From contig JAYENI010000213.1 in assembly GCA_034722015.1 (NCBI GenBank), positions 1 to 56,660 on the forward strand: a DNA stretch of 56,660 nucleotides, in the 5' to 3' direction. Numbering within the stretch: position 1 is the stretch's first letter; the number at the start of each line of letters is the position of its first letter. Below, one piece after another: positions 273-37,266 of this stretch. The translations under genes and the position numbers were made by a program. This stretch comes from Pseudomonadota bacterium (GTDB lineage: Bacteria; Pseudomonadota; Gammaproteobacteria; JAJDOJ01). The notes under the pieces were generated by a model. That model saw only the letters and a program-made list of their open reading frames with translations, was not told where the DNA came from and did not search any database.

Positions 273-429
273 GGCGATTTCTGTCAAATGACATACTATC
301 TTGCTTGTCTTTTCATTCATCCTCTGTGTTGCGACAACCGTTCCATCGTTCGACGATGCGCCTGTTGTCGCGCCTTGATGACAAACGAAAATCCGGCGTA
401 ATCTGGTATGTCATTTTCCGGCGATCGCC
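273..429 (-). mobile_element. MITE family A copy 1 (157 bp)
   Basis: Imperfect ~26-bp TIRs GGCGAT...ATCGCC, flanked by TGA at 270-272 and 430-432; opposite orientation to copies 2-5; between convergent dcd and ptsI. Confidence 0.92.
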
Positions 430-434
430 TGACG

Positions 435-2171
435 CTACGAAGCGATCAACGCGTTCAACCGTTTTACGCGCTCCGCTATTTCCTTCTGATCACTGATGGC
501 CAGAATCTCCCGGCACGAATCCTGTAGCGAATCGATCCGGCTCCTCGTGATCACCTGCCGCACCTCCAGCAGCGAGGACGGTGGCGCGGAAAACTCCCTG
601 AGACCCATCCCGAGCAGCAGCCGGGTGTAACGCGTGTCACCCGCCATCTCCCCACACATCGAGACCGCGATCCCGGCCTGTTTTCCGGCATCCAGCGCCA
701 TGCCGATGAGCGCCAGTACGGAGGGGTGGAGGGGGTCGTAGAGGTAGTTGACCTCGTCGTCCAGGCGGTCGATGGCGAGGGTGTACTGAATGAGATCATT
801 CGTGCCGATCGACATGAAATCGAGCCGGGCGGCGAACGCGGGAGCCGTGAGCGCCGCGGCCGGCACCTCGATCATGGCGCCCACCGGGATGCGGTTGTCG
901 AATCGGCGGCGCTCGCGACGCAGTTCGCGCTTGACCTGCTCGAGCAGCGCGAGCGCGGCATCGAGTTCGGACACCGAGGTGAGCATCGGGAACATCAGGC
1001 GGACGGGCCCGTACGCGGCCGCCCGGAGAATGGCGCGCAGTTGCGGCTTGAACGCATCGACGTGCTTGAGGCAGCGCCGGATGGCCCGCAGGCCCAGGGC
1101 GGGGTTGGGGCCCTGGAGATCTTTGGGCACGCCGCCGCAATCCTTGTCGGCGCCCAGGTCCAGCGTTCGTATGGTCAGCGGCTTGCCCGCCAGCGCACGG
1201 ACGACACGCCGGTAGGTGCGTAACTGCTCCTCCTCGTCGGCCGGCCGGTTCCGTTTCAGATACAGGAATTCCGTGCGGTACAGGCCGACCCCGTCGGCGC
1301 TGACCTGCTTGAGTGAACGGATCTCTTCCTGCAACTCGATGTTGGCGTGCAGGGCGATGTGTTGCCGGTCGAGCGTCACCGTAGGGGCCTTGCGCATGGC
1401 GAGGAGCGCCCGGCGCTGCGCCTGCTGCGCGCGTAGCTTGCGCCGGTAGCCGGCGGTGACACCGCGGTCCGCGTCGGCGAGGACCATTCCCGAAGCGCCA
1501 TCGATGATGACGGTTTCGTTGTCCTGGAGAAGCATGGTGGCCGTGTGGACACCGACCACGGCGGGGATCTTAAGGCTGCGTGCGAGTATGGCGGAATGAG
1601 ACAGCGGCCCGCCGGTTTCCGTGATGAATCCGGCAATGCGATTGTGCTGGAGATAGACGATGTCCGCCGGACCCAGTTCCTCCGCCACAACGATACGGTG
1701 GGTCAGGCTATGTGAATCGCCGTTGCCTCCATGCCCTTGCAGACCGCGCAGTATGCGCTCAAAGACATAGTTTACGTCGTCGCGCCGGGTGCGCAGATAG
1801 GGGTCCTCCATCTGATCGAAGACCGAGACCAGGTCATCTCGCTGGATCTTCAGGGCCCATTCCGCGTTGCACCGGCGTTCGCGGATGATATTGACCGGCG
1901 CCTCGGATAGCATCTCGTCGTCGAGCATGAGCAGGTGCGTGTCGATAAACTCCGCGACATCCCTCGGTGTGCTCTCGGGGATCGCGTCCCGGAGCCCGCG
2001 CAGCTGGTGCGACGCCTGTTGCACGGCCCGCTGGAATCGCTCGATTTCGGGTTCCACCTGATCGGGTTTGAGTCGGTGTTCGAACACGTCGGAGGTACCA
2101 TGGTGCAGTCTGGCAAGCCTGCCGATGGCGATACCACGCGAGACGCCGATGCCGCTCAGTCCGAGTGTCAT
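435..2171 (-). CDS. ptsI: Phosphoenolpyruvate-protein phosphotransferase (PTS enzyme I, no GAF domain)
   Basis: GGPLSHSAILARSL phospho-His motif, GLYRTEFLY, SIGTNDLIQY, CGEMAGD. Confidence 0.95.
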   Translation of the reverse strand: MTLGLSGIGVSRGIAIGRLARLHHGTSDVFEHRLKPDQVEPEIERFQRAVQQASHQLRGLRDAIPESTPRDVAEFIDTHLLMLDDEMLSEAPVNIIRERRCNAEWALKIQRDDLVSVFDQMEDPYLRTRRDDVNYVFERILRGLQGHGGNGDSHSLTHRIVVAEELGPADIVYLQHNRIAGFITETGGPLSHSAILARSLKIPAVVGVHTATMLLQDNETVIIDGASGMVLADADRGVTAGYRRKLRAQQAQRRALLAMRKAPTVTLDRQHIALHANIELQEEIRSLKQVSADGVGLYRTEFLYLKRNRPADEEEQLRTYRRVVRALAGKPLTIRTLDLGADKDCGGVPKDLQGPNPALGLRAIRRCLKHVDAFKPQLRAILRAAAYGPVRLMFPMLTSVSELDAALALLEQVKRELRRERRRFDNRIPVGAMIEVPAAALTAPAFAARLDFMSIGTNDLIQYTLAIDRLDDEVNYLYDPLHPSVLALIGMALDAGKQAGIAVSMCGEMAGDTRYTRLLLGMGLREFSAPPSSLLEVRQVITRSRIDSLQDSCREILAISDQKEIAERVKRLNALIAS

Positions 2172-2267
2172 GTTTCAGTGGGGCGGTGGGCGCCCGTCGC
2201 AGAGGCGTGCCAGCGGTGCGGGGTGCATCGCTCGGGACGGACGATCGCGCGGAAGCAGGACACGCAC

Positions 2268-2537
2268 CTATTCCTCTTCGCCGAAGCGCTGGCGCACCAG
2301 TTCTTCAAGCCTGTCGGCCGCCTCCACCTCGTCGCTTCCCTCGACGCGCAACGAAACCGACGTTCCGCGGCTGGCCGCGAGCATCATGACGCCCATGATG
2401 CTCTTTCCGTTCACCATTCGGCCGCCCTTTCCGAGTTCGATCTCGCTCTCGAAGGTCGAGGCAAGGTTGACGAACTTGGCCGCGGCCCGGGCGTGCATCC
2501 CGAGCTTGTTTACGATCTTGAGGTCCCGATTCACCAT
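2268..2537 (-). CDS. ptsH: HPr family phosphocarrier protein
   Basis: NKLGMHARAAAKFV (His15) and GKSIMGVMML (Ser46); start set at MVNRDL. Confidence 0.93.
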   Translation of the reverse strand: MVNRDLKIVNKLGMHARAAAKFVNLASTFESEIELGKGGRMVNGKSIMGVMMLAASRGTSVSLRVEGSDEVEAADRLEELVRQRFGEEE

Positions 2538-2545
2538 GTCGTGGT

Positions 2546-2947
2546 TCAGGCGGATTCGCCACTGTCGCACAGGAGGATGCCGTCATGCCCCCCCGTGATC
2601 GCCTTGTTGACGAGTTCATAGAGGTTGAGCGTAGGATAGTTCAGAACGCGAACCAGCATGGGCAGGCTGATGCCCGCCACGGCCTGGACGGCGACCCGGT
2701 CCACCAGTCGGCTTGCGATATTGCTCGGAGTGGACCCGAACATGTCGGTAAGAACCAGCACTCCCTGTCCCTGGTCGAGGCGCTGGCAGATATCGAGCGC
2801 CTGAGCATGGATGTCATCGGGTTCGCAGGATCCGCTGATTTCGACAAGTGCAACCTGTAGTGGACAGAATCCGAGCATCGATTCGGCGGTCTTGAGCAGT
2901 GCGTCGCCGATGCCTTCGTGTGTGATGACCAGCAGTCCTACGGACAC
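2546..2947 (-). CDS. PTS EIIA component, mannose/fructose type (ManX-like)
   Basis: LLVITHEGIG, VLVLTDMFGSTPSNIA, GISLPML motifs; position between rapZ and ptsH. Confidence 0.9.
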   Translation of the reverse strand: MSVGLLVITHEGIGDALLKTAESMLGFCPLQVALVEISGSCEPDDIHAQALDICQRLDQGQGVLVLTDMFGSTPSNIASRLVDRVAVQAVAGISLPMLVRVLNYPTLNLYELVNKAITGGHDGILLCDSGESA

Positions 2948-3147
2948 GGTCGTGACGCTCCCGGAATGGCGTTGTCGATATGTGTCTGTCCTGTCACGTA
3001 ATTCTATACCCCGGATCCGGTTATTGCCGGGTCCGGGCCGATTTTTCCCGGCGAGAACCGTTGAAACGGGCGACGCCGGTCGTGAATCCGCCCGACAGTC
3101 CGGACCGGGTGACGGTAATTTCGACGGGTCGTGGACAAGCGCTCGTT

Positions 3148-4017
3148 TCAGAGGTTTCCAAGTTCCCTGTGGCGGGAAATTACCATCAGGGTGTCATTCG
3201 ATTTGTAGCGCTCTGTCAGGCGCTCGACCAGGTAGACCGAGCGATGCTGCCCTCCGGTACAGCCGACGGAGACACTGAGATATCGCCGGTTTTCCGCGGC
3301 GAACCGGGGGACCCAGGTGTCCAGGAAAACGTTCAGGCTCTCGAACATCTCCTCCACCGTCGTGCTGTTTTCGAGGAAGTCCCTGACTTCAGGGTCCTGG
3401 CCCGTGAGCGCACGCAGGGCGGGTTCCCAGTAGGGGTTGGGCAGGCAGCGCACGTCGAACACGAAATCCGAATCACTGGGAACCCCGTGCTTGTAACCAA
3501 AAGACTGGAAGAGCAGGGACATGCGTGTCGATCCCCGCTGGCCGACGCGATCGCGGATGATGGCGCGAAGCTGGTGGAGGTTGGTCTTCGTGGTGTCGAT
3601 GACGAGGTCGGCGTTCTGCGCGACCTCCGCCAGCAGCGAGCGTTCCAGGTTGATTGCGTCAACCAGGGGTAGACCCTGGCGCGTCAGCGGATGTTTGCGA
3701 CGGGTTTCGCTGAAGCGTTTCAGCAGGGCCTCGGTGTCGGCCTGCAGGAAGATGACCTCGATGTCGACGCCCGATTCGCGGATCTTGTTCAGCAATACCG
3801 GGAATTGTCGCAACTCACCCGTTCCGGCACGGGCGTCGATACCGATTCCCGCCTTGTCGTAGAGGTGAGGTTCCTGGGACCGGAACTGGCTGACGAAGGC
3901 CTTCAGCAGCCCGGGGTGCAGATTATCGATACAGTGAAATTCCTCGTCTTCCAGGGTGTGCAGCGCCACGGTCTTTCCAGACCCCGACAGACCGCTGACG
4001 ACGACGAGTTCCATCAT
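3148..4017 (-). CDS. rapZ: RNase adapter RapZ
   Basis: VSGLSGSGKT Walker A, SFGYKHG, DVRCLPNPYW, GCTGGQHRSV. Confidence 0.95.
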   Translation of the reverse strand: MMELVVVSGLSGSGKTVALHTLEDEEFHCIDNLHPGLLKAFVSQFRSQEPHLYDKAGIGIDARAGTGELRQFPVLLNKIRESGVDIEVIFLQADTEALLKRFSETRRKHPLTRQGLPLVDAINLERSLLAEVAQNADLVIDTTKTNLHQLRAIIRDRVGQRGSTRMSLLFQSFGYKHGVPSDSDFVFDVRCLPNPYWEPALRALTGQDPEVRDFLENSTTVEEMFESLNVFLDTWVPRFAAENRRYLSVSVGCTGGQHRSVYLVERLTERYKSNDTLMVISRHRELGNL

Positions 4018-4195
4018 GATGTGGTTGTCTGTCTATCCTCGTGGCCGGCTACAGCCACCGGTACGGGAAACGACTCGGGAGAGGCCCGTCTCCCGAAATG
4101 CCAGGACATCCGGAACCCGGATTCCGGGTGTTCAATGGCTGATTCGCCCGTGTCCGCGTGATGACGCCGGATCGCGCGGGAAAAGGGACGTTTGG

Positions 4196-5134: not shown

Positions 5135-5245
5135 GGCGATAACAAGGTTCCCGGTCGGGTATCGCGAACGGCGTCGCCCGCGCCCGCGGACATGCCTGGC
5201 CCCGGTTGGCCATTCGGGACCGGGGGACAGTGTCGTGGAATCGCC

Positions 5246-5713: not shown

Positions 5714-5737
5714 ATCCAAAACATGGTTCAGGGTTTG

Positions 5738-9482: not shown

Positions 9483-10090
9483 CCGGATGGCGGATCCGGC
9501 AGGTAAGTGCTCTTCACGTCCCGGTGGAGGTTGACGATCCCCAGTTCCATGTCGATGTCTCCACCCGTGCCCTCGATCCTGTAACCCCTGCCGACCGTCA
9601 GGACGGGTTGGTCGGTACGGCCCTCGTGCCGTTCGGGAAAGACCTGGATGTCGCGGGTGTAGACGGTGTAACCGCTGCGCTCGCCGTCATCGGGCTGCGT
9701 GACACGTGCCTTGCCCAGTAACCTGACCTCTTCACGATCGGCGGCCAGCCAGGCGCGTTCCGAGCGTACCGTCATCGGGGGTTGACCAGGATTGAATACG
9801 TGCATTTCCGGTGAATCGAGCTCCATGGTGTCGTCGTCGGCAAAGCGTATCATCGTCGGGGCGTCGATCCGGTATGCCGGGAGACCGTCTTCGCCGAAGA
9901 CCTTCAGGACCACACCTTCCATCCGCATGGACGCCACATGCGGCGTGTCGCCCGGGGGGGTGAAGGCCATGTCCATACGCAGGTGCTGAAGCCAGAGCGC
10001 CAGACCGAACACGCCCGCCGTCAACAATGCGTAGAGCAGGCCCTGTCTAAAGCCACCCATCGGAGACGGGCGCGCGGTTACCCCGGTCAT
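9479..10090 (-). CDS. lptC: LPS export protein LptC
   Basis: Single N-terminal TM segment then beta-rich domain; between kdsC and lptA. Confidence 0.85.
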   Translation of the reverse strand: MTGVTARPSPMGGFRQGLLYALLTAGVFGLALWLQHLRMDMAFTPPGDTPHVASMRMEGVVLKVFGEDGLPAYRIDAPTMIRFADDDTMELDSPEMHVFNPGQPPMTVRSERAWLAADREEVRLLGKARVTQPDDGERSGYTVYTRDIQVFPERHEGRTDQPVLTVGRGYRIEGTGGDIDMELGIVNLHRDVKSTYLPDPPSG

Positions 10091-14150: not shown

Positions 14151-14777
14151 ATGACTGAGAACACGGCCGTGTCGCTGGAGATCGGGGCGTTTGGCTGGGA
14201 TCGCGCTGACTGGGTCGGCAGTTTCTACCCGGCCGATCTGCCCGTGGAGTGGCGTTTGACGTACTACGCCAACGAATTTGACGCGGTCCTGATCCCGGCG
14301 GATCTGTGGGAGTCGGAGGCGGCTTCCCATGTCGAGGCCTGGTGCGAGGACGTATCCGGGCGGTTCAGGTTTTTTGCCGAGCTGGGGACGTCACAGGTCG
14401 ACGGGGCCCGGAGGCGGTGGGTAATGTCCAGGCTGGATGCCCTGGGAGAGACACTGCACGGCCTCGTATTGCGGACGCCGGCGGACGCACCGCACGGTCT
14501 TGTACGCGAACTCCGCGATCGTTATCCCGGCAAGGCGCTGGTCGTGGATGATGCCGGTGAGGCGGGGCTGCCGCGCCTTTGGCGGCCCGGGATCCTTGAA
14601 GGTGCGGGCCCGATCGGTCTGGCAAGGTTCGACGCGCCACCACAGGCCATGGAACTGCGCAAGGTGCTGGGGTCGTTTCTCACCGCCTCCCCGGGGCCGG
14701 AGCGGGCGTTGTTCCTCGATGCCCCGCACGAGACCATCGAGACAGCGGGGACCCTGGCGCGCCTGCTGGGATACTAG
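14151..14777 (+). CDS. DUF72 (YecE-like) domain protein
   Basis: IGAFGWDRADWVGSFYPADLPVEWRLTYYANEFDAV and FRFFAE resemble the DUF72 N-terminus. Confidence 0.7.
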   Translation: MTENTAVSLEIGAFGWDRADWVGSFYPADLPVEWRLTYYANEFDAVLIPADLWESEAASHVEAWCEDVSGRFRFFAELGTSQVDGARRRWVMSRLDALGETLHGLVLRTPADAPHGLVRELRDRYPGKALVVDDAGEAGLPRLWRPGILEGAGPIGLARFDAPPQAMELRKVLGSFLTASPGPERALFLDAPHETIETAGTLARLLGY

Positions 14778-14916
14778 CAGGCTGTCGAAAAACCCTCAGG
14801 CGGCGCCATTCGGCGTTAAAATAGGGCTCCAAATGCTCATTTACTGAGCGTAAACTGCGCTTCCTCGCCCAATTTTGCCTTGCCTGGCACTCACCTGAGA
14901 TTTTTTCATCAGCCTG
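14778..14916 (-). mobile_element. MITE family B (139 bp)
   Basis: TIRs CAGGCTGTCGAAAAA / TTTTTCATCAGCCTG; flanks CTAG (includes the DUF72 stop) and CTGG; long internal hairpin. Confidence 0.8.
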
Positions 14917-15060
14917 CTGGTGCACCGCGCTTGACACGGACGGACGCTGTCACCGAGACTCGGCCATCTCCAGTCGAAGACCAACCGATGGGTAAACGGG
15001 CGCAACGGCCGCAAGGCCGGGATTCGAAGCGCCCGCAAACCGCGAAACTACCTCAACCTA

Positions 15061-15268
15061 GTGCTCCATCCAGGTGATAAATACGGATTCAGCGTTCCCC
15101 TGGTGTTTCGCAGAAAGGCGCAGCGTGCCGGCAATGGCCGCTCCCTTGTCAAACGCTGCAACGCGGCTGCGGGACACTAGGGGAGCGCCCGGGGGGTTAG
15201 CTTGTCAGCGCGCCTTGCCATGCGCGCTGACAAGCTAACTGAACTCGCACATCACCTGGATTGAGCAC
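15061..15268 (+). mobile_element. MITE family C (~208 bp, IS630-like ends)
   Basis: TIRs GTGCTCCATCCAGGTGAT / ATCACCTGGATTGAGCAC (1 mismatch), both ends in CTAG with TA duplicated; two internal hairpins. Confidence 0.82.
15196..15239. repeat. Perfect 18-bp inverted repeat, 8-nt loop
   Basis: GTTAGCTTGTCAGCGCGC-cttgccat-GCGCGCTGACAAGCTAAC inside MITE C. Confidence 0.95.
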
Positions 15269-19957: not shown

Positions 19958-20593
19958 ATGCTGAAGATAGCGCTGTCCAAGGGCCGGATACTCGACGAGA
20001 CCCTGCCGTTGCTGGCGAAGGCGGGTGTCGTACCGCTCGAGGATCCCGCCAGGAGCCGCAAGCTCATCCTGGATACGGGCGCCGAGGCGGTGAAGCTGGT
20101 CGTGATTCGCGCCACCGACGTACCCACCTTCGTCCGCTACGGCGCCGCCGACCTCGGCGTCGCGGGCAGGGACGTGCTCATGGAAAGCGGCGGCGAGGGT
20201 ATCTATGAGCCCTTGGACCTGCGACTCGCGCGGTGCCGGATGATGGTGGCCGGCAAGGTCGGCGCGGGAGCCGTCGATGGCCGCTTGCGGGTCGCCACAA
20301 AATACGTCGCCACGACCCGCGCCTGGTACGCGGCGCGGGGGCAGCAGGTCGAGATCATCAAGCTGTACGGTTCGATGGAACTCGCGCCGCTGGTCGGTCT
20401 CGCCGACCGGATCGTCGACCTGGTCGATACCGGAAACACGTTGCGGGCGAACGGTCTGGAGCCGCTGGAGCACATCGCGGATATCAGTTCGCGGCTGATC
20501 GTGAACAAGGCCTCCATGAAGACGAAGCATGCCGAAGTCAGGGGGCTGATCGAGTCACTGCGCAAGGCCGTTAAGGCGATTGCCGGAAAATGA
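19958..20593 (+). CDS. hisG: ATP phosphoribosyltransferase, short form; last codons supplied by a MITE
   Basis: [39 protein letters not shown]; ~211 aa, no C-terminal regulatory domain. Confidence 0.95.
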
Positions 20594-20731
20594 CATACCA
20601 GAATGCGCCGGATTTTCGTTCGTCTTCAAGGCGCGGTAACGGGCGCATCGTCGAACTATTCAACCGTTTCCGCAACGCGGAAGACGGGCGAAAAGACAAG
20701 CAAGATGGTATGTGATTTGACAGAAATCGCC
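20575..20731 (+). mobile_element. MITE family A copy 2 (157 bp)
   Basis: TAA duplicated at 20572-20574 and 20732-20734; inserted in the hisG 3' end. Confidence 0.92.
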
Positions 20732-20990
20732 TAACGACAGGGATGCGGCATAGCGGCATAAGAGACCGGTTCCAGAAGAAATTTTCCTCTCCCGACCGGG
20801 TTAGCCGCTGCCCCTGAAACCGGCTGCGGAAACTGCCGAGCGGAGTTTCCCGGCCTGGCCCGGATTGCACCCGGGAGCGCACCCTGCCATATTTGTCCGG
20901 TGTTCCCGTGCGGTCCCGAGCGCGGAGCGGGGACGCGTTGGCGCCTGCAAGTCGAACCGGGCCCCGCTATGAACCCCTGCCGGTAGAGCA

Positions 20991-22064
20991 ATGATGATAC
21001 AGACCGACGACCTGAGAATCCGCGAGATCCGCGTAGTCAGTACACCCGCCGAGCTGCACGAGGAGTATCCCATCACGGATGCGGCTGCCGGGACGGTCGC
21101 CCGGACGCGCTCGGCGATCCACGACATCCTGAACGGCCAGGACGAGCGGCTGCTCGTGATCACCGGCCCGTGTTCGATCCATGATCCCGATGCGGCGCGC
21201 GACTATGCCGCGAAGCTGCAGGTCGCGCGGGAGCAGTACGCAGGTGACCTCGAAATCGTCATGCGGGTGTATTTCGAGAAACCCCGCACCACCGTAGGGT
21301 GGAAGGGGCTGATCAACGATCCCGACCTGGACGGCAGTTTCCAGATAAACAAGGGGCTACGGTGCGCGCGCAGTCTGCTTCTCGACCTGAACTCGCAGGG
21401 GATGCCCGCCGCAACCGAATACCTGGACCTCATCAGCCCGCAGTACGTGGCGGACCTGGTCAGCTGGGGCGCCATCGGCGCCCGGACCACCGAGAGCCAG
21501 GTGCATCGCGAACTGGCCTCCGGGCTGTCCTGCCCCGTGGGTTTCAAGAATGGCACCGACGGTGATCTTCAGGTGGCGATCGACGCGATCCGCTCGGCCT
21601 CCCAGCCGCACCATTTCCTTTCCCTGACCAAGGCCGGTCACTCGGCGATATTCTCGACTTCCGGCAACGAGGACGGACACGTCATCCTGCGCGGTGGCAG
21701 GGAGACGAACTATGACGCCGCCAGCATCGATGCCGCGTGCGAGCGGATCAAGGGCGCGGGATTGCGTCCACAGGTCATGGTCGATTGCAGTCACGCCAAC
21801 AGCCGCAAGCGGCCGGAGAGGCAGATCGTCGTCGCCGAAGACATCGCGGCGCAGCTGGCGCAGGGGGAGACCCGGATACTGGGCGCAATGCTGGAGAGCC
21901 ACCTCGTGGCGGGTCGCCAGGACGCGATACCCGGCGTTGAATTGCAGTATGGCCAGAGTATCACCGATGCCTGTATTGGGTGGGACGATACCGGTCCCGT
22001 GCTGCAGGGTCTCGCCGAAGCGGTGCGCAAGCGCCGTACATCCGGCAGTCGATTGACGGCATGA
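20991..22064 (+). CDS. aroG: DAHP synthase, class I-alpha
   Basis: [54 protein letters not shown]; isoform (aroF/G/H) not resolvable. Confidence 0.92.
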
Positions 22065-23520: not shown

Positions 23521-24600
23521 ATGGCACAAGACGACCCCCTGAGCTGGATCCGACCCGAGGTCAGGCGGCTGGCCCCTTACCATGTCGTGGACCCCGGTGA
23601 CGCGATCAAGCTCGACGCGATGGAGAACCCCTACCGGCTCCCCGTGGACCTCGAACAACCCTGGCTGGAGCGGCTGCGCAAGGTCCCGATCAACCGCTAC
23701 CCGGATCCCGGCGCGGAGGGCGTCCGGTCGCGTCTCGCCCGGGCCCTTGGGATGCGGGAAGGGAACGCGATAGTCCTCGGCAATGGTTCGGATGAACTCA
23801 TCCAGATCATTGCCCTTTCGGTAGCGGAACGGGGTCGTGTGGTGCTGGCCCCCGGCCCGAGCTTCGTGATGTACCGGATGATCGCCGCATTCACCGGGAT
23901 GCGCTTCGTGGAAGTACCATTACAGGCAGAGAACTACACGCTGGATATGCCGGCGATGCGGACCGCCATCGAGCGTTTTCGTCCCGCCGTGGTGTTCCTC
24001 TCCTACCCCAACAACCCCACGGGAAATCTCTGGCGTCGCGAAGAGGTCCTTGAGATCCTGGAACTGTCGCCCGGAATTGTCGTGGTGGACGAGGCCTATG
24101 CCCCTTTTGCTTCGGACACGCTGGTTGATGTGGCCGGATCCCGGCCCGGTCTTGTCGTCATGCGTACGCTGTCGAAGATGGGACTTGCGGGACTGCGGCT
24201 TGGTCTCGCGGTGGGGGACGCACCGCTCATCGGCGAGTTCGACAAGTTGAGATTGCCCTACAACATTAACGTGTTGACCCAGGCAAGTGTCGAATTTGCG
24301 CTCGACCACGCGCCCGTATTCGAGCGGCAGGCGGAAAGGATCCGCGCTGACCGCGGTGAACTGTTCCGCCGCCTGGCCGCAATGGACGGCGTCCGGCCCT
24401 ATTCGAGCGAGGCCAATTTCATCCTGTTCCGGGTCATTCCCGGCATTGCGGCGTCGGTGCACGCCTGCCTGCGTGAGCGCGGTGTGCTGATAAAAAACCT
24501 GGCCACACTGCCCCAGCTTGAAGACTGTCTGCGGGTGACTGTCGGGTCCCCTGAAGAGAACACGGTCTTCCTCGATGCCCTCGGGCACTGTCTCGGCTGA
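23521..24600 (+). CDS. hisC: Histidinol-phosphate aminotransferase
   Basis: KLDAMENPY, GNGSDELI, PNNPTG, DEAY, RTLSK-GLAGLRLG. Confidence 0.95.
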   Translation: MAQDDPLSWIRPEVRRLAPYHVVDPGDAIKLDAMENPYRLPVDLEQPWLERLRKVPINRYPDPGAEGVRSRLARALGMREGNAIVLGNGSDELIQIIALSVAERGRVVLAPGPSFVMYRMIAAFTGMRFVEVPLQAENYTLDMPAMRTAIERFRPAVVFLSYPNNPTGNLWRREEVLEILELSPGIVVVDEAYAPFASDTLVDVAGSRPGLVVMRTLSKMGLAGLRLGLAVGDAPLIGEFDKLRLPYNINVLTQASVEFALDHAPVFERQAERIRADRGELFRRLAAMDGVRPYSSEANFILFRVIPGIAASVHACLRERGVLIKNLATLPQLEDCLRVTVGSPEENTVFLDALGHCLG

Positions 24601-24660
24601 ATCGATTCGCGGGTGCGCCCGACGGCATGCCGAAAAAGACGAGGAGAGCGGGCCCTCTCA

Positions 24661-24817
24661 GGCGATTGCCGGAAAATGACATACCAGATTGTGCCGGATT
24701 TTCGTTCGTCCTCGAGGCGCGACAACAGGCGCATAGTCGGACTATGTAACTGTTGTCGCAACGAAGAGGACGAACGAAAAGACAAACAGGATGGTATGTC
24801 AATTGACAGAAATCGCC
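24661..24817 (+). mobile_element. MITE family A copy 3 (157 bp)
   Basis: TCA duplicated at 24658-24660 and 24818-24820; the latter is the degS stop on the minus strand. Confidence 0.92.
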
Positions 24818-25969
24818 TCAGTAGATCTTCGGCCGCTCGGCGATGGTGACGGACTGTCGGAACGGGCTCCCGCGCCGGTGCCCGGATATCGTCACGATGT
24901 CCCCTGGCCGGTGACGGGCAATCCTCTGGAAGGCTTCCCTGGATGTCGCCAGTTCCTCGTCGTTCATGCGCATCAGAATGTCGCCTGGTCGAAGACCGGC
25001 GGCTTCCGCCGGTCCGCCCCGCATGACCTCGGTGACCAGTACGCCCTGTGACGCTCCCAGCCCGAAGGATTCGGCCAGCTGGTCGGTGACGTCCTGGGCC
25101 TGTACCCCCAGCCATCCCCGCACGACGCGGCCGTTCTCGATGATCTGGGTCATGACGTTACGGGCCAGCCCCGCGGGAATCGCGAAACCGATGCCGTGGG
25201 ACCCGCCGGAGTTGGAGAAGATCGCGGTATTGATCCCGATCAACTCACCCCTGGCGTTGATCAGCGCCCCGCCCGAATTGCCGGGGTTGATGGCGGCGTC
25301 GGTCTGTATGAAATTCTCGATCGCGCTGATGCCGACCTGGTTGCGGCCGGTCGCGCTGATGATCCCCTGGGTCACCGTCTTTCCGACACCGAAAGGGTTC
25401 CCGATCGCCAGTGCGACGTCACCCACTTCCAGTCTTTCGGAATTGCCCACGACGATCGCCGGCAGGTCCCTGGCGGCCAGTTCGAGGACGGCAAGGTCGG
25501 TTTCCAGATCGGTCCCGACGACCCTTGCCGTGATGCTCTGCTCGTCTCCCAGAATGACGTAGATCTCGTCGGCGCCATCGATGACGTGGTTGTTTGTCAG
25601 GACGTATCCCTGCTTGCTGACGATCACGCCGGACCCGAGGCTGTTCTGGACACGGGCGTCCGGGGTTGCGTCCCGGTCCTCAAAAAGCTGCCGGAACTTC
25701 GGATCGAAGGAGAGTAGCGGTAACTTTCGGCTCACCGTCTTGGTCGTGTACACATTGACGACGGCCGGCGAGGCCAGCCTGACCGCATGGGCATAGGAGT
25801 ACGGGCCGCTGGAAGGCGGGTGGGTAACCTTGTCTTCCGGGGAAACGAGTTCCACGACGGGACGCTTGATCCGGGCGTCATCCGGAATCAGGTAAAGCAC
25901 GACGAGCGCCGCGATCACGCCGACGATGGCGGAGCGCAGCAGCAGGCTTTGAAACGATTGCAGGTGCAT
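24818..25969 (-). CDS. degS: HtrA family serine protease, single PDZ (DegS/AlgW)
   Basis: N-terminal TM, LTNNHV, TDLAVL, DAAINPGNSGGAL, one PDZ domain. Confidence 0.85.
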   Translation of the reverse strand: MHLQSFQSLLLRSAIVGVIAALVVLYLIPDDARIKRPVVELVSPEDKVTHPPSSGPYSYAHAVRLASPAVVNVYTTKTVSRKLPLLSFDPKFRQLFEDRDATPDARVQNSLGSGVIVSKQGYVLTNNHVIDGADEIYVILGDEQSITARVVGTDLETDLAVLELAARDLPAIVVGNSERLEVGDVALAIGNPFGVGKTVTQGIISATGRNQVGISAIENFIQTDAAINPGNSGGALINARGELIGINTAIFSNSGGSHGIGFAIPAGLARNVMTQIIENGRVVRGWLGVQAQDVTDQLAESFGLGASQGVLVTEVMRGGPAEAAGLRPGDILMRMNDEELATSREAFQRIARHRPGDIVTISGHRRGSPFRQSVTIAERPKIY

Positions 25970-30732: not shown

Positions 30733-30793
30733 AGATGGCGGTCGGGGTCGTGCCGGCATCCTGCCCCCCCGATGTCCTGCCACGGTAGTGACC

Positions 30794-31174: not shown

Positions 31175-31330
31175 GGCGATTGCCGGAAAATGGTATACCA
31201 GAATGCGCCGGATTTTCGTTCGTATTCAAGGCGCGACAACCGGAGCATAGCAAGCTATTTGACGGTTGGCGCAACGCAGAAGACGGGTGAAAAGACAAGC
31301 AGGCTGGTATGTCATTTGACAGAAATCGCC
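31175..31330 (+). mobile_element. MITE family A copy 4 (156 bp)
   Basis: TAA duplicated at 31172-31174 (the sspB stop) and 31331-31333. Confidence 0.92.
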
Positions 31331-31343
31331 TAAGGCGATTGCC

Positions 31344-32750
31344 CTATCCGTTCCCCGATGCCGCGTCGACCGGAAAAACCTTCGCGGGATTCAGTATGCC
31401 GCGCGGGTCGAATTGCGCCTTGATGCGACGCATCAGATCCAGGGTGACCGAGTCGATCTCCCGGTCGATGTAGTCGCGCTTTGCGATCCCGACGCCGTGT
31501 TCTCCCGAGAGCGTCCCACCAAGCTTCAGCACCAGATCAAATACCTCGGCGAGGCAGCGCTCCGCGCGTTCCGTGATGCCGTCGATATCCGGGTCGATAA
31601 GCAGATTGACGTGAATGTTCCCGTTACCGGCATGTCCGAAATTCACGATCGGTATCCGGTGTTTTTCGCTAAGGACGGTGAGTCCACCGATCAGCGAGGG
31701 GATCTCCGACACCGGAACCACGACGTCCTCATTGATCTTTTCGGGTGCTATCGTGCGCAGTGCAGGCGAAAGGGCCTTGCGGGCCGCCCACATTTCCCGA
31801 ACCTCGCCCTCGTCGCGAGCCGCCCGCATGCGCAGGCAGCCTTCGATCTGCCCGGCTTGCATGATCGTCGCGGCGGCGGCGGCTACCGCCTGCTCGCTGC
31901 CATCGACCTCGATCATCAGCAGCGCCCCGGCACCGGTCGGAACATCGACCTGCGCATAGTCCCTGATCATGTCGATTGCGCATGCATCCATGAATTCCAG
32001 CGATCTCGGTACCGCAGGCTGCGCCATGATTCTGGAAATGGCCTCGGCCGCGGTGTCAACACCGGAATAGACGGCCTGCAGGGTATGAACGGTTTCAGGC
32101 AGGGGAATGAGTTTGAGTGTGGCCTCGGTGATGACCGCAAGCGTGCCCTCCGACCCGATCAGCAGACGCGTCAGATCGTATCCCACTACGCCCTTGGTGG
32201 TACGCACGCCGGTGCGTATCGGGGCGCCGAGGCCGGTCACGGCAAGAAGGCCCAGTGTGTTTTCCCGTGGGGTGCCGTATTTAAGCGCGCGTGGACCTGC
32301 GGAGTTATAGGCGAGATTGCCGCCGACCGTGCAGTAACCCGCACTCGTGGGATCAGGTGGCCAGAAAAAACCGTGTTTCGACGCCGCGTCCTGGACCGCC
32401 TGGTTGATGGCGCCCGGCTGAACCCGGATGATCCGGTTTTCGGGGTCCATATCCAGGATCCGGTCCATCCGCTCCGTGGACAGGACGAGCCCCCCGTTCA
32501 GTGGCACGGTCGCCCCGGTCGTGCCGGTGCCCCGGCCTCTGACGACGAGACTCACTCCCTCCTGGCAGCAGCATTCGACGATGCGGGCGACCTGTTCGTG
32601 ATCGTGGGCGAACGCGACCGCGTCGGGCAGCGCGTGTTGACGGCTGTTGTCGTAACCGTAGGCCCAGCAGTCTTCCGGGGCGGTAATGATATTGTCCGCC
32701 CCGGCCGCTGTCCGCAGGCGGTTGACAAAGTCCGGGGTCAGGGCGTCCAT
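31344..32750 (-). CDS. FAD-linked oxidase (GlcD/D-lactate dehydrogenase family)
   Basis: PPDPTS, KGVVGYDLTRLLIGSEGTL, GHAGNGNIH, GTLSGEHGVG, FDPRGILNP. Confidence 0.88.
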   Translation of the reverse strand: MDALTPDFVNRLRTAAGADNIITAPEDCWAYGYDNSRQHALPDAVAFAHDHEQVARIVECCCQEGVSLVVRGRGTGTTGATVPLNGGLVLSTERMDRILDMDPENRIIRVQPGAINQAVQDAASKHGFFWPPDPTSAGYCTVGGNLAYNSAGPRALKYGTPRENTLGLLAVTGLGAPIRTGVRTTKGVVGYDLTRLLIGSEGTLAVITEATLKLIPLPETVHTLQAVYSGVDTAAEAISRIMAQPAVPRSLEFMDACAIDMIRDYAQVDVPTGAGALLMIEVDGSEQAVAAAAATIMQAGQIEGCLRMRAARDEGEVREMWAARKALSPALRTIAPEKINEDVVVPVSEIPSLIGGLTVLSEKHRIPIVNFGHAGNGNIHVNLLIDPDIDGITERAERCLAEVFDLVLKLGGTLSGEHGVGIAKRDYIDREIDSVTLDLMRRIKAQFDPRGILNPAKVFPVDAASGNG

Positions 32751-32787
32751 GCTGCGGCAGTCGCGGATTGATGCCGGCAGTCCGTGT

Positions 32788-33402
<615 letters not shown>

Positions 33403-33455
33403 TTAGAAGCATGAAGTAAGTGAAGGGTCATAAACCCATCGGCGGCAGGGGATGT

Positions 33456-33809
33456 CTACCACGCCGACTCGATCGCATTGCTCAGCCAGTCTATCCGGTT
33501 GCGGGCACGGACTCCAACCACATCGATTCGCGTCGGACACCGCAGTTCGTGGCGCTGCAGGTAGTGCGACGCGGCGGCAAGGATCCGGGACTGTTTGCGG
33601 GCATCGATACTGGCCAATGCGCCCCCGAAACCGGGGTGGCTGCGGAATCTCACCTCAACGAAGACCACGGTCTCCGCGTCACGCATGATGATGTCGATTT
33701 CACCCATCCGGCAACGGTAATTGCGACCCAGCAGTTTCAGGCCGCGCCGCTGCAGATATTCGCAGGCCCATTGCTCGGCCAGCGCACCTGCCTCGAGGTG
33801 TGACTTCAT
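33456..33809 (-). CDS. yraN: YraN (UPF0102) family protein
   Basis: RNYRCRMGEIDII, VFVEVRFR, RIDVV. Confidence 0.9.
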   Translation of the reverse strand: MKSHLEAGALAEQWACEYLQRRGLKLLGRNYRCRMGEIDIIMRDAETVVFVEVRFRSHPGFGGALASIDARKQSRILAAASHYLQRHELRCPTRIDVVGVRARNRIDWLSNAIESAW

Positions 33810-35737
33810 GGCCCCCCGGTTTCGCCGGTGACCGGAACCGGTGCCGGCGGCAAGGTCCGGGGTTCCATCGGGACCGGTTCGCCGCCCTTGAACTGCACCC
33901 AGCTGAGTTGCCGGTAGATGCGGTGGCCGGTATCCAGGGAAAGCGCTCCGGTAATACCCTGAAGCTTCTCGTAGGGGCGGTCGGCCAGCCACCGCAATGA
34001 CGGAAGTACCTGATAGGCGTCAAACCCCAGTCCGACCAGTCGCGGGTACTTCCGGATTTCGCCGGGATTGGTCTCCTCCAGCCTGACACGCAAGGCACGG
34101 GCCTGGTCGTCATCGCTGATCGTGAGTGGCATGTCGGCAAACATGATGCCGTTCAGGTCCTGGTCTGCGGCGATGCTTGCGGCCCCCGCATAGACGCCGG
34201 ATGTGGCATAAACAGGGAGATCACCGGCGAAGTGAAACCGGAACTGGGGGTTCAGCAGGCGCGCCTGCCGGGGAGATGCGACGATCAGTATGGAATCCAC
34301 GTCCTGTCTGCGGCGGGGTTCGAATTTTACATCACGGCGCAAATTCGCCTGCAAGGTCCGATGTCGCTGCTGGCTCTGGTCGATCAGCAGGGCATGCTGG
34401 ATCTGGGCGGCAAAATCGGGCTGCGCCGGATCATAGGTCTCTACGGCCAAAATGTTCCCGCCAAGCTCTTCCAGGCGGGACTGGAAACTTTCGCGCAGGC
34501 GGGTCCCCCAGCGTCCCGCAGGCACGAAGACCACGGTATTCCGGTTTCCGTCGATCGACACGCGTTCCGCTGTCTGGCGCGCCTCGTCTTCGGGAAGGAG
34601 TCCGAACTGATAGAGATTCGGTGGGGCCGTCTGGTCCGCCTCCAGGTAGTTCAGGCTCAGCACGACGACCGGAAGTTCGACGGCACCAGACAGCGCGGAA
34701 ACGCCCTTCTTGTCCAGGGGGCCGATGACGGCCTCGGCGCCGTCACTCACGGCCTGGCGGTAGATGGCGGGAACCTTGTCCGCCATGTCTCCGGTGTCGT
34801 AGATCTTCAGCGCCGTTCCCGGGTTGCTGACGCCCGCGCTGTCGTAGTACGCGGCGAGAATCCCGGCCATGATCGCGGAAGAAGCCGTGGCGTACCGCCC
34901 CGTCAGGGGCAACAGTACGGCGATGGACGCGGGCTGGAACTGAAGGCGCCCCCATTCATCGAGAACGCGCAGGGTATATTCCGGTGCCGCCGGGTGTCCC
35001 GGGTAGCTCTGGTTCCACCCGTCGATGTTGTCCGCCAGCGCTTCCCTGCTCGAGGCCGGCTGCTTTTGTATCGTCGCCAGCGCCACCCAGCCCGCCACCT
35101 GCGAACTGTCGGTCTCGAGGAACCACTCGTTCAATTCGACCGGGCCGACGCCTGTGAGGACATCCCAGATCATCGCATTGTTCGAGCTTCGCTGTGCCTC
35201 GTCCAGCGGCATCCTGGAGCGGTCCGCCAGCAACGTCACGCCCTTGAGCGTCTCGCCCTTGCGGATATAGGCCTCGGCACGCACACCGGCAAGATCGGCG
35301 GCTGCATCCGGCGCCTCGGCATCCAGCGATTCGGGCAACCTGGCCAGCGCCTCGTCGGGATTGCCGTACAGCAGGTCCACCCTGGCCTCGGCGATGCGGC
35401 GGCGCACGAACAGATTCCCCTCCCAACCATCTTCGGGGAGTTGATCCAGGTAGGACTTTGCCTCGGCGCGCGTGCCCGGGGTCAGGAGGGTATCGACCGC
35501 TCGGAGCTGTAATTCCCGGGAGGCGGGATACCCGGTGAGCGCTGCCTGTTCCCAGTAGATTCTGGCCGCGCCGGTGAGGTCACCCTGTCCGGCAAGCTGT
35601 TCGGCCCTCAGCAGTTCCGGTGAGACCGTGGGCTTGCTCGGTTGGGGCGCGCAGGAAGCGAGCAGGGCGAGCGAAACGATCGCGGCGGCGATGATGTTGG
35701 TAAACTTCGGTGAATTCAATTTATCTGTCCATCGCAT
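33806..35737 (-). CDS. lpoA: Penicillin-binding protein activator LpoA
   Basis: Lipobox LASC, IAVLLPLTG, IGPLDK, GLLPEDEA, RRRQDVD; divergent from rsmI. Confidence 0.9.
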   Translation of the reverse strand: MRWTDKLNSPKFTNIIAAAIVSLALLASCAPQPSKPTVSPELLRAEQLAGQGDLTGAARIYWEQAALTGYPASRELQLRAVDTLLTPGTRAEAKSYLDQLPEDGWEGNLFVRRRIAEARVDLLYGNPDEALARLPESLDAEAPDAAADLAGVRAEAYIRKGETLKGVTLLADRSRMPLDEAQRSSNNAMIWDVLTGVGPVELNEWFLETDSSQVAGWVALATIQKQPASSREALADNIDGWNQSYPGHPAAPEYTLRVLDEWGRLQFQPASIAVLLPLTGRYATASSAIMAGILAAYYDSAGVSNPGTALKIYDTGDMADKVPAIYRQAVSDGAEAVIGPLDKKGVSALSGAVELPVVVLSLNYLEADQTAPPNLYQFGLLPEDEARQTAERVSIDGNRNTVVFVPAGRWGTRLRESFQSRLEELGGNILAVETYDPAQPDFAAQIQHALLIDQSQQRHRTLQANLRRDVKFEPRRRQDVDSILIVASPRQARLLNPQFRFHFAGDLPVYATSGVYAGAASIAADQDLNGIMFADMPLTISDDDQARALRVRLEETNPGEIRKYPRLVGLGFDAYQVLPSLRWLADRPYEKLQGITGALSLDTGHRIYRQLSWVQFKGGEPVPMEPRTLPPAPVPVTGETGGP

Positions 35738-35797
35738 GCCGGGGCGATGCGCAGGGAAACTGCCCCGGATCGGGCAGTATCGGGACTGATTAAACGG

Positions 35798-36667
35798 GTG
35801 TCAATCCAGACAGGCATTCTCTATATCGTGGCGACGCCTATCGGAAACCTGTCCGACCTCAGCGAGCGGGCGGTGAGCGTCCTGGCGGGCGTTGATATCG
35901 TCGCCGCGGAGGACACGCGCCACAGCAGGCCGCTGCTGGCACGCTGCGGTTCACGGGCGCGCCTTGTCAGTCTTCATGATCACAATGAGCGTGACCGGGC
36001 CCCCGGGCTTGTCGGGCATCTCCTGGGCGGGGCGTCGATCGCGCTGATTTCGGATGCCGGGACACCGCTTGTCAGCGATCCGGGTTACCGTCTGGTCGCG
36101 GCCGCGGCGCAAGCCGGGGTCCGTGTCAGCCCCGTGCCGGGTCCCAGTGCCCTGGTCGCAGCTCTCAGCGTGGCGGGCCTTCCGACCGACCGGTTTACGT
36201 TCGAAGGGTTCCCGCCGTCTCGTGCGGCGGCCCGCCGAATGTGGTTCGATCGCCTTGTGAGCGAGGAGCGCACGATGGTTTTCTACGAATCGCCGCGGCG
36301 CCTGCGGGAATCCATGGACGACATGTCCGATGTCTTCGGGGAAGCGCGGCGCGCGGTGGTGGCGCGCGAACTCACCAAGGCCTTCGAGACCGTGCGACGC
36401 GGTACGCTTGCCGATCTGTCCGAATGGGTCGGGGGTGACGCCAATCAGCAGCGCGGAGAGATCGTTGTCGTCGTCGAGGGTGCGCAGGATCCTGGCGTTG
36501 CATCGGCGGAACTGGAGTCACGCAAGGTCATCGGGGTGCTACTGCGCTATCTGCCTGTGAAGTCCGCGGTAAAGGCGGCCGCAGAACTGACGGGCCTCCC
36601 CCGCAATGCGCTGTATGACATTGCGGTCCGGTTAAAGGAGGAAGACGCGATGGGCGGCCCCTCGTGA
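35798..36667 (+). CDS. rsmI: 16S rRNA C1402 2'-O-methyltransferase
   Basis: LYIVATPIGNL, AAEDTR, SDAGTPLVSDPG, ARELTKAFE. Confidence 0.95.
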   Translation: MSIQTGILYIVATPIGNLSDLSERAVSVLAGVDIVAAEDTRHSRPLLARCGSRARLVSLHDHNERDRAPGLVGHLLGGASIALISDAGTPLVSDPGYRLVAAAAQAGVRVSPVPGPSALVAALSVAGLPTDRFTFEGFPPSRAAARRMWFDRLVSEERTMVFYESPRRLRESMDDMSDVFGEARRAVVARELTKAFETVRRGTLADLSEWVGGDANQQRGEIVVVVEGAQDPGVASAELESRKVIGVLLRYLPVKSAVKAAAELTGLPRNALYDIAVRLKEEDAMGGPS

Positions 36668-36690
36668 GCCCGGGGAGTCCCCGATCGATA

Positions 36691-36699
36691 TGGTAGACT
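36691..36699 (+). promoter_or_regulatory. Putative extended -10 promoter of rnpB
   Basis: TGnTAGACT ending 6 bp before the RNA 5' end. Confidence 0.55.
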
Positions 36700-36705
36700 T
36701 CCGCA

Positions 36706-37101
36706 GGGAGTCGGCCGAACAGTCGCTGCGTCGTAAACGTCCTTAGGGGCGCTGGCGTGGAGGAAAGTCCGGGCTCCGCAGGGCAGGGTGCCAGGTAACC
36801 CCTGGGGGGCGCGAGTCCACGGAAAGTGCAGCAGAAAGCATACCGCCGATGGCCCGAATCCACGGAAACCGTTCGCGGCAACCCGTGCGGAGGGTACAGG
36901 CAAGGTTGAAATGGTGCGGTAAGAGCGCACCGCGTCGCTGGTAACAGTGACGGCAGGGTAAACCCCACCCGGAGCAAGACCAAATAGGGGAGCTCACGTG
37001 CGGCCCGCACGGCTCCCGGGTAGGTCGCACGAGGCGTGCGGTGACGTACGTCCCAGATGAATGGCTGTTCTCGACAGAACCCGGCTTACAGGCCGGCTCC
37101 C
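36706..37101 (+). ncRNA. rnpB: RNase P RNA, class A
   Basis: GAGGAAAGTCCGGGCTCC, GGTAAACCCCACCCGGAGCAAG, ACAGAACCCGGCTTA; 5' GGGAGTCGGCC pairs with 3' GGCCGGCTCCC; follows rsmI. Confidence 0.97.
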
Positions 37102-37109
37102 CCTTTTTA

Positions 37110-37266
37110 GGCGATTGCCGGAAAATCACATACCAGATTGCGCCGGATTTTCGTTCGTCATCAAGGCGCGGCAACAGGCGCATAGTCGAACTATGTCACT
37201 GTTGTCGCAACACAGGAGACGGATGAAAAGACAAGCAAGATGGTATGTCATTTGACAGAAATCGCC
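37110..37266 (+). mobile_element. MITE family A copy 5 (157 bp)
   Basis: TTA duplicated at 37107-37109 and 37267-37269; immediately 3' of rnpB. Confidence 0.92.

Follow-up and report, generated by a model that had tools for sequence, protein, structure and literature searches.

The body of two widespread MITE lineages, one comprising A-, C- and E-type elements and the other B-type elements, is a conserved hairpin, and the terminal 20-30 nt (TIRs) needed by transposases are exchangeable. The elements belong to at least two target classes, namely TNA (IS5/Harbinger-like) and TA within CTAG (IS630/mariner-like). Compensatory change maintains the hairpin, which is strand-specific.

The window, i.e., the whole stretch of 56,660 nucleotides that was analyzed, carries members of three families, termed A, B and C. 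Two covariance models were used for scoring, R1 built on the body of family A and R2 on the core only. The features are as follows.

273..429, minus strand: family A MITE, copy 1, with the module on the minus strand; TGA duplication at 270-272 and 430-432; core at about 326-376; R2 match of 45.2 bits at 315-386 (minus strand)
14777..14917, minus strand: family B MITE; ends GCAGGCTG..; CTAG-like insertion site; AAGGC..AACGC at 14813-14881 of the minus strand
15061..15268, plus strand: family C MITE; ends GTGCTC..GAGCAC; TA duplication at 15059-60 and 15269-70
15092-15113/15167-15188: outer stem of the left hairpin of family C, with the module at 15115-15164; R2 match of 77.5 bits at 15105-15175
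15196-15239: palindrome, the remnant of the right module of family C, which is inverted and mostly deleted
20575..20731, plus strand: family A, copy 2; TAA duplication; module at 20628-20678; R1 120.9 bits, R2 60.7 bits
24661..24817, plus strand: family A, copy 3; TCA duplication; variant GAGGC..AACGA at 24714-24764; R1 and R2 matches
31175..31330, plus strand: family A, copy 4 (subfamily A'); TAA duplication; module at 31228-31277; R1 and R2 matches
37110..37266, plus strand: family A, copy 5; TTA duplication; AAGGC..AACAC at 37163-37213; R1 and R2 matches

The elements in the window are non-coding and TIR-bounded, with lengths of 157 bp (A), 141 bp (B) and 208 bp (C). Full-length C elements measure ∼264 bp and contain two inverted modules; the copy in the window bears a deletion of ∼51 bp that removes most of the second. 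As an earlier note on this DNA had claimed, the three families differ in ends and targets: A carries a GGCGATT TIR and a TNA target, B carries CAGGCTG in CTAG-like flanks, and C carries GTGCTC, with TA in CTAG. The module proposed there, AAGGC-[stem-loop]-AACGC, is exact in family A at 20628-20678 and 31228-31277, in B at 14813-14881 (minus strand) and in C at 15115-15164, while variants of it stand in the three remaining A copies; the consensus of family A on the second loop side is AAC[G/A]C. The outer stem of C was read by hand as 22 bp with 18 Watson-Crick and 4 G-T pairs, as previously described. The RNase P RNA gene ends 5 nt before copy 5 of family A.

Families A, B and C are true mobile MITEs, as established by their TIRs, matching duplications, the dispersed A copies and empty sites. 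Throughout the genome, family A yielded 374 non-overlapping matches, 309 of which were full length and nearly all intergenic. Identical 3-nt flanks were observed in 170 of 241 copies, and the flanks conformed to TNA in 223 of the 241, with the middle base co-varying. Empty sites for the A copy at 24661 and for the B and C copies were detected in related strains that are ∼94% identical: copy 3 of family A is missing from them (skip of 24634-24816), the site of B is empty in a related strain (skip of 14778-14919), and that of C was skipped in three runs (15057-15266), the 210 nt corresponding to the element plus TA.

This genome, a draft of 297 contigs in which IS copies may be unassembled, yielded no autonomous IS sharing the ends of A, B or C; such ends do not flank the two weak DDE_Tnp_1 matches or the only DDE_3 ORF either. 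Several candidates for a parent IS were rejected. Partial A matches proved to be deletion or insertion variants of A, and a longer variant seen repeatedly is A with an insertion of ∼85 nt. Solo A ends in loci L010, L015 and L018 adjoin ordinary genes, and a pair of ends 3.1 kb apart in genome G079 encloses ordinary genes together with an IS200-like TnpA.

All three families share one fold, consisting of an outer stem, the internal loop C-AAGGC / AACGC-N-G and an inner stem. The loop, with its closing C-G pair, its 5'-AAGGC and AACGC-N sides and a G-C pair at the centre, is nearly fixed, and the stems around it covary heavily. Within the A lineage (25 sequences from at least 15 genomes), 28 of 37 pairs were changed on both sides, giving 99 double-change cells versus 22.1 in shuffles (none of 500 reached the observed value) and at most 29 in slid controls. 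In the B lineage (24 genomes) the corresponding figure was 27 of 41 pairs, and in the cross-family core (29 sequences) covariation extended to 16 of 17 pairs, with 155 cells versus 52.7 in shuffles (0 of 500). Both the fold and the strong covariation favour the reading of the earlier note.

The bare pattern was not enriched within the window (7 found versus 3.4 expected, and 3 versus 3.4). When the motif was combined with a 7-bp closing stem, 332 occurrences were counted genome-wide, compared with 3-24 for 25 permuted-motif controls, and only 33 of the 332 fall outside families A, B/B2 and C. Not every hairpin repeat has the module, as three other such families (27, 21 and 17 copies) in this genome lack it.

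Loop conservation was measured on samples that had not been selected by motif. Column identity in the A lineage was 0.80-0.85 in the loop versus 0.66-0.79 in the flanking stems; in the B lineage, AAGGC was present in 19 and AACGC in 21 of 24 sequences. The loop is thus more conserved than the stems, which likewise favours the earlier reading. Bases lying outside any search pattern were similarly constant, with C at -1 and G at +2 each found in 24 of 25 family representatives. In distant members the loop drifts (AAGGA, TAGGA and GAGGG on one side, GACGC and GACAC on the other). A 5-bp target duplication as the source of both pentamers was rejected by eye, since the third base consistently differs in all lineages. 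The pentamers could also be half-sites of a protein that binds double-stranded DNA (a direct repeat AASGC, 45-65 bp apart), the hairpin being incidental. Known repeat families do share short protein sites, such as GANTC in CIR1-4 and the IHF site of Correia elements (PMC2229807). However, the inner sequence between the pentamers measures 40-59 nt depending on the family, the stems on either side covary, and without exception the pentamers lie exactly at the helix junction next to the conserved closing C-G pair, all of which make this explanation very improbable.

The core-only model R2 unites families A and C, and it matched 46 of 151 sampled genera. Family B falls in another hairpin lineage, which has the same loop at its junction and was matched by blastn in 100 of 400 genomes. 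The proposal of one module across three families is limited in that a single model recovers A and C, but B has only the junction loop in common with them. Beyond the junction, homology between A and B was undetectable (z ≤2.1); R1 scored 11.2 bits on B and 18.2 bits on C, which is the noise level, two unrelated hairpins scoring 18.4-18.6 bits.

Descent from one ancestral palindromic element would offer an explanation without function, in which arm-to-arm copying or a need for long inverted repeats preserves the hairpin, and the loop is a frozen remnant. In keeping with this, the A, C and E types have further apical features in common, R2 recovers A as well as C, the homology of B and B2 is plain (Smith-Waterman z = 42), and the loop does drift in distant members. 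On the other hand, the loop has stayed while nearly all of the stem sequence was replaced, arm-to-arm copying would erase a fixed asymmetric loop and one-sided G-T pairs, and A and B show no homology past the junction. Common descent without function is accordingly considered improbable.

The observation of the earlier note holds and extends further than described there. These hairpin bodies recur in other genomes, where they lie between at least 10 different terminal repeats, with both TNA and TA targets. The earlier suggestion of a cargo spread by different transposases is strengthened by this exchange of ends. The pattern was enriched in ∼29 of 401 genomes of the class Gammaproteobacteria, reversed-pattern controls giving at most 7, and also in one family of another class. 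The tallies of 401 genomes, 151 genera and 400 genomes include the unpublished genomes G042, G143, G297 and G309, on which alone no conclusion depends. In a plasmid collection, the A and E-type elements had no match, and C had one weak match, which led to an element of Azotobacter chroococcum. Strain NCIMB 8003 of this species has a C-type element on pAcX50f, and A-type elements are present in another cultured carrier, Thiorhodococcus mannitoliphagus DSM 18266.

The strands of the hairpin are not equivalent. Mismatches on the AAGGC strand were predominantly G-U rather than A-C, with 84 versus 18 cells (19 versus 6 sites) in one comparison and 47 versus 8 cells (13 versus 2 sites) in the other, so that the one-sided G-U excess claimed from the window was borne out. 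R1 scored 112-126 bits on the module strand versus 23-46 bits on the opposite strand, and R2 matches were confined to the module strand. Within a family such asymmetry counts as a single event, and families lacking the module show it too. Among low-frequency variants in 288 A copies, G-T was only slightly commoner than A-C, the excess lying in ∼9 versus 3 high-frequency sites.

Whether the selected strand is RNA or DNA bears on the most serious alternative, in which the hairpin is selected as single-stranded DNA. It would extrude on one strand, e.g., during replication or repair, and bring the ends together for excision or integration, with the loop as a site for a host DNA-structure protein and the function residing in the transposition cycle. 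The strand asymmetry in folding energy also holds under DNA parameters (280 of 297 A copies, 11 of 11 for B), and RNA is therefore not energetically favoured over single-stranded DNA. With respect to the flanking genes, A copies lay in sense orientation about as often as in antisense (71 versus 69, on crude gene calls), and scans detected neither a sigma-70-like promoter nor an intrinsic terminator inside A, B or C. Without an internal promoter an RNA would need transcription from outside, yet the position of the copies is not selected for that. In favour of the single-stranded DNA explanation, selection appears to act on proliferating lineages and not on inserted copies. Elements that use lagging-strand DNA are usually biased with respect to GC skew, whereas the A copies were not (114 versus 125). 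Moreover, the TNA and TA duplications and the TIRs point to DDE transposases, for which we know of no single-strand hairpin step, and G-T pairs are frequent (∼4-7 per element). A role as single-stranded DNA thus appears rather unlikely.

The module is real and, as a structured cargo, probably undescribed. A search of the whole window against Rfam 15 retrieved only RNase P RNA at the gathering threshold; at E ≤10 the elements gave only chance-level microRNA and lncRNA matches, and there was no match at nine loci of other types or at the C297 locus. No Rfam model covers A, B or C, again in favour of the earlier reading. A description of the module was not found in the literature searched, including passages of PMC4853749, PMC2229807 and PMC10969869, a result that is not proof of absence. 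The similarity to ERIC repeats (127-bp consensus in enterobacteria) that the earlier note suggested is unsupported by sequence, as A and B+C gave no match by blastn (distant mode) in 5,426 complete E. coli genomes.

The elements nevertheless resemble several known systems in part. ERIC/IRU elements are small, TIR-bounded intergenic repeats of enterobacteria with a TA target, whose hairpin transcripts affect mRNA stability via RNase E in an orientation-dependent manner (PMC2229807). The size, intergenic position, TIRs, TA target and long hairpins are alike, but there is no sequence similarity, and here the body is common to many TIR types and two target classes. Correia/NEMIS elements of Neisseria are likewise MITEs with a TA duplication and a hairpin; they contain an internal IHF site, and their hairpin RNA is cut by RNase III (same source). 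They constitute, however, one family with one end type in one genus, in contrast to a covarying core found in at least 46 of 151 genera with many ends. In the CIR1-4 repeats of Caulobacter and Brucella, as in the present case, several families have one short conserved motif in common, which occupies a constant place in a conserved RNA-like fold (PMC2229807). The CIR motif, however, is the methylase site GANTC and lies in an apical loop of repeats that lack TIRs, whereas here a two-sided internal loop lies in MITEs bounded by TIRs and duplications. REPs are 20-40 bp long and GTAG- or CGTC-tagged (PMC3733652). REP/REPIN elements (RAYT, Y1 transposases) share with the present ones strand-specific hairpins, a short tag beside the stem and inverted pairs, comparable to the halves of family C. 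REPs are not known to have a target duplication; the present elements have other tags, lengths of 140-264 bp, TIRs and true duplications, and thus fall outside REP/REPIN.

Other readings were discarded by eye. None of the dif/Xer-like, K-turn or tetraloop-receptor motifs fits; a small ORF through A is at odds with the indels and paired changes; and a sigma-54-like TGGC-N7-TTGC in the apex of C lies in a paired stretch in which the GC is not conserved. Integron attC sites have paired outer boxes (RYYYAAC / GTTRRRY) and lie next to cassette ORFs and an integrase, and this identity was also rejected: the pentamers here are unpaired loop strands, and the elements are dispersed singly in intergenic positions, with TIRs and duplications. 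The Tourist-like and Stowaway-like MITEs of plants use TWA and TA targets, form hairpins and are non-autonomous, and thus resemble the present elements in all three respects, including the same two target types; to our knowledge, no conserved internal structured module common to both plant classes has been described.

The reading that we prefer, with moderate confidence, is that the AAGGC strand of the hairpin is selected in single-stranded form, RNA being the most likely, that the purine-rich loop docks a conserved factor and that the element lineage benefits. The RNA would most likely stem from read-through transcription, single-stranded DNA being the less likely form. The factor docked at the loop would be one that is conserved throughout Gammaproteobacteria, e.g., an RNA-binding protein or a ribonuclease, and its binding would favour the element lineage via host tolerance or efficiency of spread. 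Owing to this benefit, lineages that keep the hairpin would proliferate and gain new ends. We infer this mechanism from the patterns described above; neither a partner protein nor a transcript was found.

A bacterial MITE is usually viewed as two transposase-binding ends with arbitrary filler between them, whereas here the filler is the conserved part, and in A, B and C it looks like selected cargo. More tentatively, and with some doubt on our side, the hairpin and not the transposon end may be the long-lived replicator, i.e., an undescribed structured nucleic acid in two lineages with one putative docking loop (C-AAGGC / AACGC-N-G), which recruits a conserved host factor, gains new terminal repeats and rides any IS5-like or IS630-like transposase. 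Such a replicator might, on the same doubtful footing, have spread to about one third of the sampled genera and come to occupy 1-2% of some genomes. With the two covariance models, hundreds of intergenic repeats per genome that now lack annotation can be annotated, and Azotobacter chroococcum, a cultured and harmless carrier, makes the matter accessible to experiment. Should the loop serve for binding or processing, a class-wide host factor would interact with mobile elements, a second layer of selection would act on MITEs, and the rise of some families to hundreds of copies would be explained.

The ~160-bp element of family A occurs in the window as four same-strand copies, detected by repeat finding, and a fifth, inverted copy recovered by blastn; the first and last copies mark exactly the limits (273-37266) of the range described in the earlier note. 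The AAGGC-[stem-loop]-AACGC module had been claimed for families A, B and C alike, and the exact string was located in all three, the remaining A copies carrying variant pentamers (GAGGC..AACGA or AAGGC..AACAC).

Elements and exact modules in the window
273-429, minus strand, family A copy (blastn; fifth, inverted copy)
20575-20731, plus strand, family A copy (repeat finding)
24661-24817, plus strand, family A copy (repeat finding)
31175-31330, plus strand, family A copy (repeat finding)
37110-37266, plus strand, family A copy 5 (repeat finding)
14777-14917, family B
15061-15268, family C
20628-20678, plus strand, exact AAGGC..AACGC, family A
31228-31277, plus strand, exact AAGGC..AACGC, family A
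15115-15164, plus strand, exact AAGGC..AACGC, family C
14813-14881, minus strand, exact AAGGC..AACGC, family B

The bare pentamer pattern was not enriched in the window (7 versus 3.4 expected, and 3 versus 3.4), and its weight there stems from its location, not its frequency. Only 143 nt separate B from C within a single intergenic region, and both are absent from a related strain (one contig, run X6). A class A bacterial RNase P RNA gene (36707-37104, 314 bits) has its 3' end 5 nt before A copy 5.

Families A, B and C are real MITEs. In the source genome (4.46 Mb, 297 contigs, 61% G+C), nhmmer returned 374 non-overlapping family A matches, 309 of them full length, and only 3 copies fell within genes according to our crude gene calls. 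Among the 241 copies with both ends readable, the 3-nt flanks were identical in 170 and of the form TNA in 223 (TTA 90, TAA 61, TCA 9, TGA 8); since the middle base co-varies between the flanks, the target duplication is real. Family B terminates in GCAGGCTG within CTAG-like flanks, and its sister family B2, whose body is homologous (Smith-Waterman z = 42), in GGAGGGTG with non-specific flanks of 3-5 bp. Family C has GTGCTC ends and a TA target; its full-length form (~264 bp) is made of two hairpin halves, one inverted relative to the other, and both contain the module; the window copy lacks ~51 bp of the right half. Contigs from other metagenomes, ~94% identical in the flanks, skipped C exactly (15057-15266, three runs). 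In such contigs B was also missing (one run, replaced by 14 other letters), as was, in two runs, the copy of A at 24661 (replaced by 21 other letters). A 245-nt variant of family A, termed A-long (contig C238, 20645-20891), carries an ~85-nt insertion in the lower internal loop and recurs in at least 7 other places in this genome (contigs C229, C253, C181, C96, C206 twice and C57); its flanks are still TNA, and it has thus apparently spread in one piece.

The family A consensus forms one long hairpin, in which AAGGC (positions 54-58) opposes AAC[G/A]C (100-104) around a central G56-C102 pair. Genome-wide, the pentamers with a 7-bp closing stem were found at 332 sites, versus 3-24 in 25 permuted controls. 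Grouped by inner sequence, 245 + 26 of these fell in A, 13 in B/B2, and 8 and 7 in the right and left modules of C, respectively, with 33 singletons left over; one singleton is a member of a fourth, small family (C297, together with C21, C288 and C289). A de novo repeat survey also revealed a module-bearing E-type family of 3 copies. The module was absent from four other dispersed repeat families in the same survey, three of which are strong hairpins; the module is therefore specific and not a general property of repeats.

Module-less repeat families in the source genome
C180, 6458-6578, hairpin family of 27 copies
C126, 4236-4381, hairpin family of 21 copies
C273, 1443-1549, hairpin family of 17 copies
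C113, 2726-2819, family of 30 copies

This genome also contains small REP-like families with palindromes TAGGTCGGGTTA..TAACCCGAC.

The A-end pattern was matched in Thiorhodococcus mannitoliphagus, Thiohalocapsa, Sedimenticola, and Chromatiaceae and Competibacteraceae MAGs, all Gammaproteobacteria, and blastn of A matched 12 of 400 genomes of the class. In several of the 12, the inner 100 nt alone matched and the outer 25-30 nt were different inverted repeats, flanked again by TTA/TAA-like triplets. The same hairpin body is thus found between different ends and outlives its terminal repeats, which strengthens the earlier proposal of a cargo spread by different transposases. In three metagenome runs from marine and sediment samples, summed contig depth was 300-650 over A copies versus about 5 in the flanks (window 20504-21170, 24506-25172 and 31176-31842), and terminal repeats of other kinds were seen at the loose contig ends; these samples are therefore rich in A-like bodies, placed in many contexts.

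An alignment of 25 A bodies, which were not selected by loop sequence, gave a consensus of 37 pairs, 28 of which showed compensatory double changes. The proportion of paired cells was 92.7% (81.2% in shuffles), and double-change cells numbered 99 versus 22.1 in shuffles (0 of 500 reached this value; controls with slid pairing gave at most 29). AAGGC was exact in 16 of 25, its AGG core in 22 and AAC in 19; column identity was higher in the loop (0.80-0.85) than in the adjoining stems (0.66-0.79). The most conserved part, ahead of even the AAGGC/AACGC loop, was a lower internal loop, GGA / AGAC (identity 0.93-0.96; columns 14-16 and 101-104, window 20611-20613 and 20695-20698 in copy 2), which lies beside an invariant G-C pair and is compatible with tandem G.A pairing.

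Family B represents a second lineage sharing the A-type junction. Its blastn matches extended to 100 of 400 genomes, often as the central 70-80 nt alone with different ends. By our count, AAGGC was exact in 19 and AACGC in 21 of 24 aligned homologues; the structure predicted by RNAalifold comprised 41 pairs, 27 with double changes, and included long-lived U.G pairs, and the central G-C of the loop was invariant. The A and B consensus sequences displayed no similarity beyond the junction (z at most 2.1). At the B hairpin centre (window 14830-14866 region), a covarying apical stem is set between long unpaired segments, GAAAAAGCG.. and ..ATGAGCATTTTGAG, that hardly vary across the 24 genomes; this conserved motif is distinct from the junction.

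The pattern AAGGCGC-N26-46-GCAACGC was strongly enriched over a reversed control in ~29 of 401 genomes of the class (e.g., 65 versus 1, 60 versus 1, 55 versus 2 and 53 versus 0; 134 versus 7 in the source genome) and, beyond the class, in one family of the phylum (55 versus 1, 38 versus 2, 24 versus 1). The inner stem-loops were of types A, C, D, E, F, G and H, within MITE-like hairpins having further ends, such as TTAGGGAGCCTC.., TTAGGGAACCTCTGAT.., GGTGCTCC..TGATAATT and GAGAGCTTGTGAAT... In 24 of 25 family representatives the base 5' of AAGGC was C, and in 24 of 25 the second base 3' of AACGC was G, positions included in none of the search patterns; this gives a loop of 5 x 6 nt with a C-G closing pair. 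A cross-family alignment of the core (29 sequences), in which loop invariance is an ascertainment effect, had double changes in 16 of 17 flanking pairs (155 cells versus 52.7 in shuffles, 0 of 500 reaching this; slid controls at most 56). The covariance model of this core scored C at 77.5 bits and gave 45-66 bits for the five A copies, of which three were outside the training set; its matches to both were on the module (AAGGC) strand only, and it did not detect B in the window; the notion of a single module in three families thus stood for A and C under this model, but not for B. With one genome per genus, 46 of 151 had matches at E <=1e-4, and an unannotated ~250-bp element on plasmid pAcX50f of Azotobacter chroococcum NCIMB 8003 scored 77.2 bits. 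A weak match at window 9686-9722 (minus strand, 20.3 bits, E 0.001), outside known repeats, is probably noise. One genome rich in module-bearing MITEs (G079) encodes a 144-aa IS200-like Y1 transposase ORF (locus L094, 756-1190), for which no tie to these elements was seen.

The asserted G-U bias of the AAGGC strand was evident as 84 G-U versus 18 A-C cells in the A bodies (19 versus 6 of 37 sites) and 47 versus 8 in the cross-family core (13 versus 2 of 17 sites). The A-body covariance model scored 112-126 bits on the module strand versus 23-46 on the opposite strand. By folding energy, 262 of 297 A, 11 of 11 B and 10 of 12 B2 copies favoured the module strand, although copies within a family share descent and each family counts as one event; in elements of type E and type F from other genomes, the two strands differed by 20-37 kcal/mol. 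Whole C elements were symmetric, as expected for an element holding the module in two orientations. The module-less families also exhibited consistent within-family asymmetry, the asymmetry of folding energy was also present under DNA parameters, and in 288 A copies the G-U excess resided in ~9 versus 3 high-frequency sites, rare variants being nearly balanced.

Family A orientation was unbiased with respect to neighbouring genes (71 versus 69) and GC skew (114 versus 125), and scans of the elements revealed no promoter-like or terminator-like sites within them; it is therefore the proliferating lineages, rather than the inserted copies, that seem to be under constraint. The hairpin would work as a single-stranded fold, for which we infer RNA to be somewhat ahead of single-stranded DNA, and the junction loop would be the putative site recognised by a conserved host factor.

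No Rfam 15 family reached threshold on any of the types, in line with the novelty suggested earlier, and no similarity to E. coli genomes was found. The nearest precedents include ERIC, with its orientation-dependent RNase E effect, Correia, with an IHF site and RNase III, and CIR, with a GANTC motif common to four families (excerpted text of PMC2229807). The excerpted text of a 2024 review of prokaryotic MITEs (PMC10969869) mentions hairpin transcripts and MITE-derived sRNAs, and no shared module. The elements are rated as MITEs whose conserved part is the structured core and whose ends are exchangeable.
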